Assembly: GCA_964479045.1 (NCBI GenBank)
Contig: CAYZJI010000006.1
Location: 80,241-144,240 of the forward strand
Reading direction: 5' to 3'
Length of the DNA: 64,000 nucleotides
Origin: an uncultured Enterobacteriaceae bacterium
Lineage (GTDB): Bacteria; Pseudomonadota; Gammaproteobacteria; Eutrophobiales; Eutrophobiaceae
Shown here: positions 5,208 through 62,394 of the stretch, one piece after another
Layout: every line of letters begins with the position of its first letter
How positions within the stretch are numbered: position 1 is the stretch's first letter
Notes under the pieces: model-generated
Seen by the model: only the letters and a program-made list of their open reading frames with translations
The model's database searches: none
Told to the model about the DNA's origin: nothing
Made by a program: the position numbers and the translations under genes

Positions 5208-5861
5208 ATGAAACTGGCCATCTTCGATCTCGATAACACCCTTATGGGCGGTGACAGCGACTACCTGTGGGGACAGTTTCTGGCCGAAAGTGGCCACGTG
5301 GATGGCGTGGTTCGCCAGCAAAAGAACCGTTATTACTACGAGGAATACAAGGAGGGCCGGCTGGATATCCACGATTTTCTGAATTTTCAGTTACAACCAC
5401 TGGCCGGCGTCGATCCGGACATCCTGCACCAGCGGCGCGCAGAATATATCGATGCAAAAATTCGCCCGATCCTGCTGCCGAAAGCAATCAAGCTCATTAA
5501 TGATCACCGTGAAAAAGGACATGAACTGTTGATCATCACCGCGACCAACCGTTTTATTACTCAACCGATTGCCGAACTCTTCGGCATCAAACATCTGATT
5601 GCATCCGAAGCCGAGATCAAGGATGGACGTTACACCGGCAAGGCCATCGATATTCCTTCCTATGCCGAAGGCAAAGTCACACGCCTGAATGCATGGCTCA
5701 AGAAAAATAAACTCCAGCCGGATGAAACCTGGTTTTACAGCGATTCACACAACGATCTGCCTTTGCTCAGAATCGTCGATCATCCCGTCGCCGTCGATCC
5801 GGATGAGATATTGAAAAAAGAAGCAGAACAACAAGGCTGGCCGATGATTAGTTTGCGGTGA
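5208..5861 (+). CDS. HAD-IB family hydrolase (SerB-like phosphatase fold)
   Basis: It begins with the DxD motif of HAD phosphatases (MKLAIFDLDNTL) and has the HAD motifs II-IV (LIITATN..., DSHNDLPLL). It is divergent from rppH. Confidence 0.7.
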   Translation: MKLAIFDLDNTLMGGDSDYLWGQFLAESGHVDGVVRQQKNRYYYEEYKEGRLDIHDFLNFQLQPLAGVDPDILHQRRAEYIDAKIRPILLPKAIKLINDHREKGHELLIITATNRFITQPIAELFGIKHLIASEAEIKDGRYTGKAIDIPSYAEGKVTRLNAWLKKNKLQPDETWFYSDSHNDLPLLRIVDHPVAVDPDEILKKEAEQQGWPMISLR

Positions 5862-5966
5862 GTTCCTTCACTTCCTCTAAACAGGTTATATACTCCATTA
5901 ATAGCTCGAGTTTATGATATTTAATGAGTACTTCATTATTATTTGCTTTAATGGAAAATTCGTAAC

Positions 5967-6629
5967 ATGGAAAAATATACTGATATAGAAAAAGCAAACA
6001 TAAACTTCTATGGCAATGCTGTAAGTTATTCCATGCGAATTGATGAAGTAAAATCATTTTTAAATGAAATTCATAACTTTATTGAAAAGACGAATAAACA
6101 TCTAAAGAAAATTAAAACTAAAAAAATTGATCCCGATGCTCTAGAAGATTTAAAATATCATTTTGAGTATACGCACGGAGATATTTTAAGAAAATCGATC
6201 ATCATCTCGATCATTATAATACTATCTTCGGAATTAAATAATTATTGCAATGATTTTAAAAAACATAAAAAATTAAAAATAAACTATAAAGATTTTAAAG
6301 GTGACTTGCTAGAAAGATTTAAAAATTATTGCTTAAAAGTTCTAGATATTAATCTTGACTTTGAATCTGATATTTGGAAAGACATTGCTAGCATATACGA
6401 AATTCGTAATTGCTTAATTCACAATGATGGCTGTTTAAATAATTTCATTAAACGCAATCTTATTGAAGATTTTGCAAAAAGACATAACTCACCTGAAATC
6501 ATACTTGATGATTATTTAGATATTACGAATCAAGTATGCCTCGAATCTATCAGCACTGTAGAAAAATTTCTCGATATCCTTACGTTCATTGCTTTTGAAC
6601 ATTTCCCCGGAAATTATGGTGGGAAATAA
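5967..6629 (+). CDS. HEPN-like (R-x4-H motif) protein in an AT-rich islet; candidate abortive-infection/RNase toxin
   Basis: 220-aa ORF filling a strongly AT-rich insertion. A C-terminal EIRNCLIHNDG segment fits the Rx4-6H HEPN catalytic motif. Lys/Asn/Ile-rich codon usage differs from the neighbouring genes. No homolog was recognised by memory. Confidence 0.4.
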   Translation: MEKYTDIEKANINFYGNAVSYSMRIDEVKSFLNEIHNFIEKTNKHLKKIKTKKIDPDALEDLKYHFEYTHGDILRKSIIISIIIILSSELNNYCNDFKKHKKLKINYKDFKGDLLERFKNYCLKVLDINLDFESDIWKDIASIYEIRNCLIHNDGCLNNFIKRNLIEDFAKRHNSPEIILDDYLDITNQVCLESISTVEKFLDILTFIAFEHFPGNYGGK

Positions 6630-6743
6630 GGTACGGTAACTATAGGAGTCAAATTGATTAATTTTTAAACCGGTCAAACAAGAAAGCCACTTATAATAAT
6701 AAAGGGGCCGGAGTGATTTATTTTTGACCAGTTAAATTTATAA

Positions 6744-6770
6744 ACAAAAAAGCCACTCATTGAGTGGCTT
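6744..6770 (-). terminator. Rho-independent terminator of mdh (hairpin agccactc-attg-agtggct followed by a T-run on the minus strand)
   Basis: A perfect 8-bp stem is flanked by an A7 run on the plus strand. It lies 27 nt downstream of the mdh stop. Confidence 0.65.
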
Positions 6771-6796
6771 CTTCATTTACATCAAAAACAATTCTG

Positions 6797-7777
6797 TTAT
6801 TTCAGAATTTTTGCTACGGCATCCCGTTCTTCTTCGAGTTCCTTCTGCGTGGCCGCCATTTTGGCTTTGCTGAAGTCGTCGATCTTCAAGCCCTGCACGA
6901 TCGAGTAATCGCCGTTCTTGCAGGTAACCGGAAAAGAATACATCAGTCCTTTCGGAATACCATAACTGCCATCACTGGCGACCGCCATGCTGACCCAGTC
7001 ATCTTTGGGTGTACCCAGCACCCAGTCATGCATGTGATTGATAGCACCGTTCGCTGCTGAGGCTGCACTGGATGCGCCGCGTGCGGCAATAATTTCTGCA
7101 CCACGTTTGGCGACACGCGGAATAAATTCATTTTCATACCAGCCGCGATCAACCATGCCGCTGGCCGCTTTACCGGCAACCGTGGTGTTGCTGATGTCCG
7201 GATATTGTGTAGTGGAATGATTGCCCCAGATGGTCATCTTTTTAATGTCACTGACTTTTGATCCGGTCTTGGCAGCGAGTTGTGCGAGCGCACGATTGTG
7301 ATCGAGGCGGGTCATTGCAGAAAAATTACGCGGGCTGATGTCCGGTGCACTGACCATCGCGGTATGGGCATTGGTGTTCGCAGGATTACCCACCACCAGC
7401 ACTTTCACATTCCGATCTGCATTGTCATTGATCGCCTTGCCCTGCACCTTGAAGATGCCGCCATTGGCTTCAAGCAGATCGCTGCGTTCCATGCCGGGGC
7501 CGCGTGGTTTCGCACCGACAAGTAATGCATAGTTGACATCCTTGAAAGCCTTGTTCACATCATCGGTGAGCACACAACCGGCCAGCAAGGGAAAGGCACA
7601 ATCATCCAGTTCCATGGCCACACCTTCCAGCATTTTCATGGCCGGTGTAACTTCCAGCATTTGCAGTATTACAGGTTGATCCTTGCCGAGCATTTCGCCA
7701 GCGGCAATGCGGAACAGGAGTGCATAGCCGATCTGCCCTGCAGCGCCGGTCACAGCTACACGTACGGGTGCTTTCAT
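6797..7777 (-). CDS. mdh: Malate dehydrogenase (NAD), LDH-like MDH type 2
   Basis: It has a [22 protein letters not shown] Rossmann motif and an MDH catalytic region (...GNPANTNA... MTRLDHNRA ... IWGNHS). The start was chosen at the second ATG (7777), which follows a GGAG Shine-Dalgarno. The track ORF starts at 7792. Confidence 0.85.
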
Positions 7778-7818
7778 ATTGTTATTCTCCACTAACTTGT
7801 AAAGTTTTAATTGTTATT

Positions 7819-61898: not shown

Positions 61899-62186
61899 AT
61901 GAACAAGGAAAGTTTTGAATGGGATTATGTAAAGGACATCTATAACCGCCTGAAACATGGTGTTGCATTCAAGGACGCCCAATACGTATTTGATGATCCC
62001 TTCAGAATCATGGCTCCTTATAAAACGCATAGTTCCAGTGAGGCAAGATTTTATTGTATAGGAAAAGTTGTTGATGGAATCATGACTGTAAGATTTACAA
62101 TACGGGAAAACAGAATTCGAATTATAGGCGCAGGTTACTGGCGCAAAGGCTGGAAAGTTTATGAAGAAAAAAATCAAATACACTGA
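61899..62186 (+). CDS. brnT: BrnT-family toxin (DUF497 ribonuclease) of type II TA system
   Basis: FEWDYVKDIYNRLKHGVAFKDAQYVFDDPF ... RFYCIGKV ... IRIIGAGYWRKGWKVYEE matches the BrnT/DUF497 pattern. It overlaps the downstream antitoxin gene. Confidence 0.7.
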   Translation: MNKESFEWDYVKDIYNRLKHGVAFKDAQYVFDDPFRIMAPYKTHSSSEARFYCIGKVVDGIMTVRFTIRENRIRIIGAGYWRKGWKVYEEKNQIH

Positions 62187-62394
62187 TGAGCCAATGGGTG
62201 ATATTGAAATCATTAAAGATTTTCTGCCACCACCAGACAAACTGGTTTTCAAGGAGGATAAGGTTAAAGTGACCATCGCCTTAAACCGTTCCAGCCTCAC
62301 ATTTTTTAAAAAGCATGCTGCAAAATACCGTGTTCCCTATCAAAAAATGATCCGGAACCTGCTGGATGAATATGTCGCACGGCATAATAAATAA
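62161..62394 (+). CDS. brnA: BrnA-family antitoxin (CopG/RHH-like, COG3514)
   Basis: 77 aa. The C-terminal ALNRSSLTFFKKHAAKYRVPYQKMIRNLLDEYV matches the BrnA family. It overlaps brnT by 26 nt. Confidence 0.65.
   Translation: MKKKIKYTDEPMGDIEIIKDFLPPPDKLVFKEDKVKVTIALNRSSLTFFKKHAAKYRVPYQKMIRNLLDEYVARHNK

Follow-up and report, generated by a model that had tools for sequence, protein, structure and literature searches.

The HAD–mdh locus raises the question of what a lone gene of foreign composition, coding for a protein with an RNase-like motif, is doing between two housekeeping genes, and whether such a gene could act in defence without a partner.

The AT-rich islet and its origin

The window, i.e., the whole 64-kb stretch of DNA that was analysed, contains an AT-rich islet between two convergent genes. 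The islet and the genes which bound it are organised as follows.

5208..5861, + strand: HAD-family hydrolase gene, left boundary, native GC (Pfam HAD PF12710, E = 3.5e-39), syntenic in the relatives L006 and L007
5862..6796, no strand: AT-rich islet, 935 bp, 28.0% GC, filling the interval between the stop codons of HAD and mdh, which are convergent
5862..5966, + strand: upstream spacer, 105 bp, presumed promoter region of the ORF, with sigma-70-like hexamer pairs at 5867-5894 and 5914-5942
5967..6629, + strand: ORF of the HEPN-like protein, 220 aa, 26 kDa, single-domain, 26.7% GC, full length
6630..6738, no strand: downstream AT-rich spacer without recognisable function, in which 19 nt (6676-6694) nearly repeat the left terminator arm
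6739..6779, no strand: intrinsic terminator hairpin between an A-run and a T-run (stem 6750-6770, 9 pairs)
6797..7792, - strand: malate dehydrogenase gene mdh, right boundary, native GC (Ldh_1_N and Ldh_1_C)

The initial annotation described the islet as far richer in AT than its flanks, which direct calculation confirms: its GC content of 28.0% compares with 50.3 ± 2.7% (mean ± sd; minimum 39.8%) for the 66 non-overlapping 935-bp segments outside 5862-6796 (z = -8.3). Both this calculation and the composition profile identify 5862-6796 as the lowest-GC extreme of the whole window. The ORF contains no frameshift or premature stop, and no second ORF of at least 70 aa was found in the islet, consistent with the description of a single 220-aa gene between the HAD gene and mdh. 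The hairpin at 6739..6779 (-25.7 kcal/mol, z = -7.9, with 0 of 200 shuffles equally stable) is the terminator of mdh on the - strand, and likely also terminates the + strand transcript of the ORF. Because the right-hand ~55 bp are this terminator, common with mdh, the foreign insert itself probably stops near 6740.

In the two nearest syntenic relatives, the order citrate synthase-mdh-HAD-RppH is preserved and a homologue of the ORF is absent; their mdh–HAD junctions are short, with 47 bp for L006 and about 13-16 bp for L007. Absence from the same junction, together with the low GC content, bears out the view that the gene is compositionally foreign. The Mdh of the window is 81% identical to that of Thiotrichaceae bacterium UBA7357, and the nearest comparison genomes are 75-81% identical in Mdh. 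Homologous genes have 25-34% GC and lie on contigs of 32-42% GC, one of them from Chryseobacterium vietnamense. As judged from these sequence comparisons, the islet was probably acquired horizontally, and recently, from a low-GC, probably Bacteroidota-like donor, the timing being bounded only by relatives that are 75-81% identical in Mdh.

A single repeat spans the islet boundaries, with 10 nt that match exactly at 5860-5869 and 6836-6845. One copy lies within mdh, and about 0.7 such matches would be expected by chance in 1.25 kb; the repeat is not taken as an insertion scar. The direct repeats of 54-64 nt which flank the homologue in L086 and L088 were not found in the window. No tRNA gene lies within 15 kb of the islet, and no integrase gene was found. 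A search of a phage collection gave no match and that of a plasmid collection two weak matches. The locus is a clean case of a defence-type gene present as a bare insert of ~0.9 kb between convergent housekeeping genes, without integrase or repeats.

The ORF product and the HEPN superfamily

The 220-aa protein has 18 full-length homologues with 35-58% identity (close set), and a broad alignment, A2, includes 117 diverse homologue sequences with a mean column identity of 23%. When clustered at 50% identity, the family forms at least 2,642 groups, whose members are 'hypothetical' in every source; a second homologue search with the broad alignment gained few sequences and no source name beyond 'hypothetical protein'. 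Its members come for the most part from metagenomes and from low-GC, Bacteroidota-like genomes. The protein had been said to fall into no recognised family, and indeed no Pfam, NCBIfam or PHROG model covers it: the NCBIfam scan returned nothing and the best PHROGs E-value was 1.1. Pfam DUF3496 (E = 0.043) was considered as the family of the ORF and taken as noise.

The C-terminal half of the protein includes the following motif.

6399..6431, + strand: codons of the Rx4H motif, E145-I-R147-N148-C-L-I-H152-N-D-G155 (peptide EIRNCLIHNDG)

In the definition of HEPN domains, Rx4-6H is conserved and its Arg is directly followed by a polar residue, N, D or H (PMC3710099); R147, N148 and H152 are arranged in this way. 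The same definition includes an endoribonuclease activity which is independent of metal and relies on the Arg and His, usually at a composite site of a dimer. R147 and H152 are invariant in 117 of 117 A2 sequences, and N148 is present in 116. In the AF2 monomer model (pLDDT 89.8, pTM 0.87), helices are predicted at residues 6-48, 56-100, 114-126, 135-153, 163-173 and 188-212; R147-H152 occupy the last turns of helix 135-153, followed by a loop.

Library searches point in the same direction. The PADLOC model RTasHEPN is matched by all 18 members of the close set and by 113 of the 117 members of the broad family (best E = 8e-12), and by the window protein itself with E = 4.6e-4 over residues 126-163, including the motif. 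Sub-threshold Pfam matches among the 117 sequences are to RiboL-PSP (22 sequences), Cthe2314 (3) and Apea (2), and the recurrent ones are all HEPN models. The best family score against HEPN_RiboL-PSP (PF18735) is 22.2 bits (E = 1.5e-4) relative to a gathering threshold of 28.4 bits, and the window protein does not match this model. Comparison with the Pfam HEPN families therefore yields sub-threshold matches among homologues, none of which reach threshold. Profile–profile alignment by hhalign with PF18735-annotated proteins (E = 3.5e-4, probability 37%) places two segments in register: 'ILR.S..IS....E' with 'IL.RQ.FIS..GT.E' in helix 2, and 'RNC.VH..G' with 'RHDLVHRNG' in the Rx4H region.

At the level of structure, the AF2 model points to a HEPN fold, but Foldseek with the predicted structure found no significant match in the PDB (nothing below E = 0.1). 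A search of BFVD structures gave a single match (TM 0.53, E = 3e-3), to a protein from Myoviridae that is uncharacterised and of the same size. Sequence searches of the PDB, run with the single protein and with a profile of the 117 sequences, returned coiled-coil noise only, and a search with the RiboL-PSP profile found no solved relative.

Overall, membership of the protein in the HEPN superfamily is largely supported by sequence and by the predicted structure. The earlier proposal that EIRNCLIHNDG fits the HEPN Rx4-6H motif stands, as the invariant Arg and His, the AF2 fold, PADLOC, the sub-threshold Pfam matches and the profile–profile alignment agree. That the protein is instead an unspecific bundle of helices with a fortuitous R-x4-H spacing is very hard to credit: the motif is invariant despite a mean column identity of 23%, it lies at the usual HEPN position with Asn after the Arg, the recurrent library matches are all HEPN models, and two separate motifs align in register in hhalign.

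Ser87 and possible attenuation

One residue sets the window copy apart from its family.

6225..6227, + strand: codon TCT of Ser87, at the column which in HEPN domains holds the acidic residue of helix 2 (Glu in 112 of 117 family members, Asp in 3)

In many HEPN families, an acidic residue of helix 2 is predicted to augment the active site (PMC3710099). Ser87 is unique to the window copy among the 117 sequences; one family member has Gln at the same column. The landmarks ILRKS and YC, both conserved, have zero indels between them, which makes the column assignment unambiguous. In the window protein, Glu89 lies two residues from the Ser87 column. Given Ser in place of the helix-2 Glu or Asp, the window copy may be attenuated.

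The gene might accordingly be an attenuated or inactive relic, i.e., a toxin which is tolerated without a regulator through E87S or silencing and does nothing useful now. AT-rich foreign DNA is commonly silenced. A promoter in the islet is not demonstrable beyond chance consensus matches, as eight sigma-70-like matches were found compared with 5.3 ± 2.3 in shuffled sequences, which is not significant. Also, the composition of the islet is unameliorated and its residence in the genome therefore short, as a relic would allow. These features and the uniqueness of Ser87 are offset by an ORF which is full length without frameshift or stop and retains all the other invariant residues (G16, E27, S77, S81, G112, W137, E145, R147, N148, H152 and G155). 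In addition, the acidic residue is found only in 'many' HEPN families (PMC3710099), and the family itself tolerates Gln at this position in one member. A relic is therefore considered unlikely, while still deserving some weight.

Search for a partner or antitoxin

The initial annotation suggested that a small RNA or a short ORF hidden in the flanking AT-rich DNA could serve as an antitoxin. This suggestion was not substantiated. A search of Rfam with the islet flanks gave no match above noise, and the spacers contain no tandem repeats, the only tandem repeat being an A-rich run of 24 nt within the ORF. Compared with shuffled sequences, folding of the upstream spacer is not significant on either strand, and that of the downstream spacer gives z = 0.40 on the + strand and -1.68 on the - strand. 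All-against-all BLAST revealed no conservation of flank DNA between different orthologues and, when applied to the neighbour proteins across loci, no conserved neighbouring gene. A type III toxin–antitoxin system (AbiF/ToxIN-like) was rejected, as the upstream spacer has no tandem-repeat RNA gene, significant fold or Rfam match.

Two observations leave some room for the gene being the toxin of an addiction module whose antitoxin is an sRNA, an antisense transcript or a micro-ORF in the islet. Of 7 close orthologues, 5 have an antisense frame, in phase with the gene, that stays open through the final 35-60 codons (individual P 0.02-0.10, which is marginal), and a promoter-like site on the - strand (6668-6639) is directed into the 3' end of the gene. 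Moreover, the HEPN protein AbiF is cited as RNA-regulated, with a reported RNA antitoxin, and HEPN_RiboL-PSP is described as its distant kin (PMC3710099). Yet the antisense frame is interrupted in L090, L089 and every distant member, the position of its start varies, and promoter-like matches occur at chance level in such AT-rich DNA. Together with the lack of tandem repeats, Rfam matches above noise, flank folds beyond shuffles and flank conservation between different orthologues, this makes a toxin–antitoxin module improbable.

Genomic contexts and proposed mechanism

Homologues of the gene lie mostly in defence islands. Neighbours at the homologue loci include SIR2_2, HNH_5 and a STAND-type ATPase with TPR repeats; NucS_C, a helicase and SduA_C; Pycsar, AAA_15/21, DUF4238 and DUF5677; an EcoRI methylase with GmrSD and IS110; and a serine recombinase, MTES_1575, NOV_C and E1/E2. 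The neighbours in L090 are an EcoRV R-M system, DUF3800, a RiboL-PSP HEPN gene (a true PF18735 member) and TIR-STING. A further homologue adjoins a STAND-type ATPase with TPR repeats, and one on a Caballeronia plasmid has Abi_C and an integrase nearby. The view of the gene as a defence module is thus favoured by most of the contexts, but not by two in the broader family, i.e., ordinary genes in L092 and a housekeeping hot spot in L086.

These two contexts bear on the idea that the protein combines a HEPN-like fold with a role other than that of a nuclease or in defence, such as nucleotide or RNA binding, regulation, or propagation as a selfish cassette without benefit to the host. Function is here deduced from motifs and neighbours, and some HEPN domains are non-catalytic binders (PMC3710099). 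HEPN proteins that keep Rx4-6H are, on the other hand, argued to be RNases, and non-catalytic ones typically lose the motif (PMC3710099); the Arg and His are invariant in all 117 sequences. Further points against a housekeeping role are the neighbours in defence islands and a patchy distribution with horizontal movement. Such a non-nuclease function has a low probability.

The favoured reading, which is given about an even chance and draws on analogy for its mechanism, is that the islet was recently acquired from a low-GC donor and encodes a stand-alone, self-inhibited HEPN RNase which would cause abortive infection upon a phage trigger. In a homo-oligomer, two Rx4H motifs (R147, N148 and H152) would meet to form a metal-independent endoribonuclease site. 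In uninfected cells, this site would be kept off by the conformation of the protein itself and not by an antitoxin. A phage-derived cue would then open the site, and the opened site would cut cellular RNA, with tRNA anticodon loops as the likeliest target. The infected cell would no longer support the phage, resulting in abortive infection. Computation shows the foreign composition, the empty junction in relatives, the links to HEPN by fold, motif and profile, the location of homologues near defence genes and mobile elements, and the lack of a conserved partner. Oligomerisation, RNase chemistry, trigger, RNA target and abortive outcome are proposed because characterised HEPN proteins behave in this manner.

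A more extended reading is tentative and rather doubtful. It holds that the protein represents a large uncurated family of compact, antitoxin-less, one-gene anti-phage HEPN nucleases, moving between phyla as cassettes of roughly 1 kb (here from a Bacteroidota-like donor to a Thiotrichaceae-like gammaproteobacterium), and that E87S is an adaptation for tolerance by the host.

If the protein is active, a sizeable unannotated family would join the few HEPN nucleases known to provide immunity from one gene. With 220 aa and no separate sensor domain recognised, it would be a compact subject for studies of how a HEPN nuclease is held in the off-state and switched by infection. Tools for defence annotation would then also merit a new profile, as Pfam, NCBIfam and PHROGs contain nothing for the family and PADLOC gives a weak match to a component of another system. 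The locus stays within known categories of biology, and its novelty is below the initial estimate because HepS, ApeA and DARNA have already been characterised as stand-alone HEPN defence proteins.

Comparison with known HEPN systems

RTasHEPN (PDLC03820, classified under DRT) is the top library match for the family, but of its 148-position model only the C-terminal part (about 58-141) aligns. A literature search for 'RTasHEPN' found no paper; by inference, the name denotes the HEPN-like protein that accompanies reverse transcriptases of the UG22 type (PMC9226505). No reverse transcriptase gene is present in the islet or among the neighbours of the homologues examined, and the two-gene architecture of DRT is therefore absent.

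HEPN_RiboL-PSP belongs to an AbiD/AbiF-related clade, distantly akin to AbiF and AbiD (PMC3710099). It is the only Pfam family that recurs broadly (22 of 117), with the helix-2 and Rx4H segments in register. Unlike the window protein, the PF18735 proteins compared have 275 aa with an extra N-terminal region, and His, not Asn, follows the Arg. The L-PSP fusion and the ParB operon of this family are absent at the window locus.

HepT/MntA (HEPN-MNT, type VII toxin–antitoxin) differs in that no MNT nucleotidyltransferase gene adjoins the window ORF. HepT has an AMPylated Tyr in Rx4HxY, whereas RNCLIHND of the window protein has Asp at H+2, and the identity between the two proteins is 9-10%.

ApeA and DARNA (PD-T7-3) are single-protein HEPN anticodon nucleases which exert abortive infection from one gene, are activated by infection-derived ligands and do not need an antitoxin (10.64898/2026.01.26.701840; 10.64898/2026.02.22.705581). 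The functional class to which they and HepS belong is defined by one gene that suffices for phage resistance, with loss of this resistance when the motif His is mutated. In its genomic features, the window locus is similar, with a single HEPN gene whose homologues lack a conserved partner and lie mostly in defence islands. ApeA and DARNA are much larger and have extra sensor domains (456 aa for DARNA compared with 220 aa), and sequence links are sparse: HEPN_Apea is matched below threshold by only 2 of 117 family members and the PD-T7-3 model by none of the 117.

The closest parallel is HepS ('HEPN Solo'), an abortive-infection protein of the Gifsy-1 prophage in Salmonella, which is a self-inhibited oligomer and acts as an anticodon nuclease when triggered by a phage protein (PMC13043305). 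Like the window protein, HepS is a single small HEPN protein (<250 aa) with a canonical R-N-x3-H motif, has no co-occurring partner or inhibitor gene, and resides in mobile or accessory DNA. By this analogy, HepS would be the best model for how the window protein works. The lack of a partner is not anomalous and calls for no special explanation, given that HepS, ApeA and DARNA are characterised stand-alone, self-regulated HEPN defence proteins. The partner-less HEPN defence protein is an established type, of which the window protein is a further, as yet unnamed member.

Composition and borders of the islet

Across roughly 5850–6750, GC content falls from ~0.50 to 0.23–0.32, as judged from the composition profile and from reading the sequence of 5500–7100. 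The islet, 5862–6796, has 28.0% GC versus 50.3 ± 2.7% in 66 non-overlapping 935-bp windows elsewhere in the 64-kb window, where the minimum is 39.8% (z = −8.3). Its limits are exactly the stop codons of two convergent genes, and it contains a single long ORF, the remaining ORFs all being <70 aa. The description in the initial annotation, an insertion far more AT-rich than its flanks with one 220-aa ORF, is thus borne out.

Features of the islet and its borders
5208–5861, + strand: HAD-family hydrolase gene (Pfam HAD, E = 3.5e-39), left border
5967–6629, + strand: long ORF encoding the window protein, 220 aa, 26.7% GC
6225–6227, + strand: TCT codon of S87, in the helix-2 acidic column
6399–6431, + strand: EIRNCLIHNDG peptide within the ORF, residues 145–155
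6739–6779: strong hairpin between an A-run and a T-run, −25.7 kcal/mol, z = −7.9
6797–7792, − strand: malate dehydrogenase gene mdh (Ldh_1_N and Ldh_1_C), right border

The hairpin is best interpreted as terminating mdh transcription and probably that of the ORF too, which places the likely end of the foreign DNA near 6740. A 19-nt direct repeat is present at 6676–6694 (AAACAAGAAAGCCACTTAT) and 6742–6760 (AAACAAAAAAGCCACTCAT), the copies being 66 bp apart. The second copy forms the left arm of the terminator hairpin; the first could be what is left of an older terminator, now degenerate, or an insertion scar. The sole other low-GC patch in the window (34–40% GC, about 61.7–63.0 kb) carries a BrnT/BrnA type II toxin-antitoxin pair (61899–62394, + strand), in which the gene for the 95-aa BrnT toxin (PF04365, E = 4.8e-20) and a 77-aa ORF overlap, the latter giving a BrnA_antitoxin match below threshold (E = 2.7e-4).

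Probable insertion and origin

Relatives were sought with Mdh as query in a genome set with one representative per species, which yielded no genome of the same species. Two relatives keep the local order citrate synthase–mdh–HAD–RppH: Thiotrichaceae bacterium UBA7357 (L006; Mdh 81% identical) and L007 (Mdh 75% identical). The stop codons of the HAD and mdh genes are 47 bp apart in the former and about 13–16 bp apart in the latter, and in both loci the ORF has no homologue: the junction is empty. Searches around the islet found neither an integrase nor a tRNA gene, and no convincing duplication of a target site.

Every homologous gene for which DNA was obtained has 25–34% GC and lies in a contig of 32–42% GC, one such source being Chryseobacterium vietnamense. 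The islet is most simply read as DNA that this gammaproteobacterium of ~50% GC acquired recently from a Bacteroidota-like, low-GC donor and that has not yet ameliorated.

In three further mdh loci (L008, L012 and L014; Mdh 69–74% identical), rppH directly follows mdh and the intervening HAD gene is missing, so that gene content next to the mdh 3′ end varies in this part of Gammaproteobacteria independently of the islet.

A large family of stand-alone proteins

Scans of the window protein against Pfam, NCBIfam and PHROGs gave nothing meaningful, in keeping with the initial failure to recognise a family. A word-indexed search of 5.8 billion proteins detected 17 homologues beyond the window protein, full length, 35–58% identical and all annotated as 'hypothetical'. 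G16, E27, S77, I80, S81, G112, L115, F118, K119, W137, I140, E145, R147, N148, H152 and G155 are invariant in the 18-sequence alignment. Searching 1.84 billion cluster representatives with a profile extended the family to 2,642 clusters at E ≤ 1e-3, of which 789 reach E ≤ 1e-10; with few exceptions they are 200–230 aa long and stand-alone. Among 117 diverse members, with a mean column identity of 23%, R147 and H152 are the sole invariant columns, and N148 is kept in 116. One representative of 292 aa (P0125) bears a fused N-terminal XRE-type HTH domain.

Membership of the HEPN superfamily

[quoted passage not shown] The AlphaFold2 model of the window protein (pLDDT 89.8, pTM 0.87) has helices at 6–48, 56–100, 135–153 and 188–212, a short insert helix at 114–126, and, after helix 135–153, an insert of helix 163–173 and a small beta-hairpin. 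R147–H152 occupy the last turns of helix 135–153, and the predicted layout matches the HEPN definition. The fold by itself is weak evidence, because designed and generic bundles give similar structural scores and a Foldseek search with the model returned nothing significant.

This gap is closed by sequence matches to HEPN models. Of the close members all 18 match the PADLOC RTasHEPN model (best E = 5e-8), as do 113 of the 117 broad members (best E = 8e-12), and there are stray PADLOC matches to DzbB, CARF-HEPN, Cas13a and Cas13-ApeA. Recurrent Pfam matches are to HEPN families only (RiboL-PSP in 22/117, Cthe2314 in 3, Apea in 2), and all are sub-threshold. When the family profile was compared by hhalign with an alignment of PF18735-annotated proteins, seeded with a gene in homologue locus L090, the match (E = 3.5e-4, probability 37%) paired ILR.S..IS....E with IL.RQ.FIS..GT.E in helix 2 and RNC.VH..G with RHDLVHRNG in the catalytic segment. 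The HEPN motif initially proposed for EIRNCLIHNDG is thus supported by conservation and profile matches. We conclude that the window protein belongs to the HEPN superfamily, whose definition it fits, in or near the RiboL-PSP/AbiD/AbiF-like clade; having missed the Pfam threshold, it stands outside every curated family. That the ORF is a horizontally acquired HEPN-superfamily gene is highly probable.

Among viral proteins, the sole notable structural match is an uncharacterised protein of the same size (BFVD entry A0A8S5LJP3, Myoviridae sp. ct6F13, 215 aa; TM 0.53–0.54, probability 1.00, E = 3.2e-3), suggesting that relatives of the fold may also be phage-encoded.

The helix-2 acidic column is Glu in 112 of the 117 members, Asp in 3, Gln in 1 and Ser (S87) in the window protein alone; this assignment is firm, as no indel separates the flanking landmarks. 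Since the acidic residue is predicted to augment the HEPN active site (PMC3710099), the window copy may be attenuated. Apart from S87 the protein is intact, with all other invariant residues kept.

Neighbourhoods of homologues

Gene neighbourhoods of eleven different family members were inspected.

Neighbourhoods of homologue loci
L001 (Chryseobacterium): STAND-type ATPase with TPR repeats, HNH_5, SIR2_2
L003: NucS_C, AAA_11/12 helicase; SduA_C on a longer contig
L004: Pycsar (cyclase and PycTM), AAA_15/21 ATPase 12 bp downstream, DUF4238, DUF5677
L086 and L087: variable spot among housekeeping genes; IS110 in one
L088: EcoRI-type methylase and GmrSD
L089: serine recombinase, MTES_1575, NOV_C, M78 with HTH, E1/E2-like genes
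L090: DUF3800, EcoRV R-M, true RiboL-PSP HEPN gene, TIR-STING
L092: ordinary genes
L093: prophage-like run of small ORFs
L094: STAND-type ATPase with TPR repeats
L095 (Caballeronia plasmid): Abi_C protein gene 12 bp upstream; integrase

Most of these contexts belong to defence islands or mobile DNA; that of L092 is ordinary. No homologous neighbours are shared between loci, and no flanking DNA is common to different orthologues.

Tight but non-conserved partners are the AAA_15/AAA_21 ATPase gene (L004, 7635–9239) and the Abi_C gene (L095, 4901–5782). Together with the HTH fusion of P0125, these differing partners suggest that the HEPN module may have been recruited into different systems.

The L086 and L088 contigs encode an identical homologue, P0177, bracketed by 54–64-nt direct repeats 989–991 bp apart (L086, 7821–7874/8810–8863; L088, 233–296/1224–1287), and their contexts diverge outside the repeats. 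The repeats contain the palindrome GGAAGTAAACTTCC; L087 has the upstream copy only, with IS110 downstream. The arrangement around P0177 resembles a single-gene cassette of ~1 kb, much the same size as the islet. The window itself has no copy of the repeat.

Search for a hidden partner

A small RNA or short ORF in the islet flanks had been suggested as a regulator, and this found no support. Rfam at a permissive threshold yielded nothing but noise at the terminator, there were no tandem repeats like those of type III antitoxins, both flanks folded no better than shuffles on either strand (z from 0.40 to −1.68), and promoter-like matches were at chance level (8 versus 5.3 ± 2.3). An in-phase antisense frame is open over the final 35–60 codons in five of seven close orthologues (P 0.02–0.10 each; window 6516–6677, − strand, and equivalent positions in L001, L003, L004 and L086). 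The frame is interrupted in L090 and L089 and in every distant member, and its start position varies. In the window gene the final three Leu codons are CTC, CTC and CTT, whereas TTA and CTA prevail before them. The antisense signal is statistically marginal, unproven and probably compositional.

Proposed mechanism and comparison with known systems

Solo HEPN immune proteins that need no antitoxin are by now well established. HepS has a single HEPN domain and no partner genes that co-occur with it; its self-inhibited tetramer is opened by a phage tail-tip protein, after which it cleaves tRNA anticodons (PMC13043305). Deoxydinucleotides activate the ApeA oligomer (10.64898/2026.01.26.701840), and DARNA is switched on by complexes of ssDNA with phage SSB (10.64898/2026.02.22.705581). 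Given such systems, the puzzle of a missing antitoxin dissolves.

Fold, motif, horizontal origin, defence neighbourhoods and partner absence come from the computational analyses; oligomerisation, chemistry, trigger, target and phenotype we infer by analogy with these three proteins. The window protein would oligomerise via its HEPN core, bringing two R147/N148/H152 motifs together in an assembly that stays closed until an infection cue. Once opened, it would cleave cellular RNA, most likely tRNA, thereby aborting infection. A one-gene abortive-infection nuclease of exactly this form is an evenly balanced proposition. In practical terms, the analysis brings out a sizeable family overlooked by current annotation tools, and a very small candidate for work on HEPN self-regulation.

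HepS is the closest functional analogue of the window protein, whereas PADLOC RTasHEPN and Pfam RiboL-PSP are closest in sequence. The protein scores below the RiboL-PSP threshold; it differs from RT-associated DRT systems in having no RT gene, from HEPN-MNT in lacking both the MNT gene and the Rx4HxY motif, and from type III toxin-antitoxin systems in having no repeat RNA. As a HEPN protein that falls outside each of these specific families and systems, it is an unnamed addition to the already known solo-HEPN type, and a modest surprise to the specialist.
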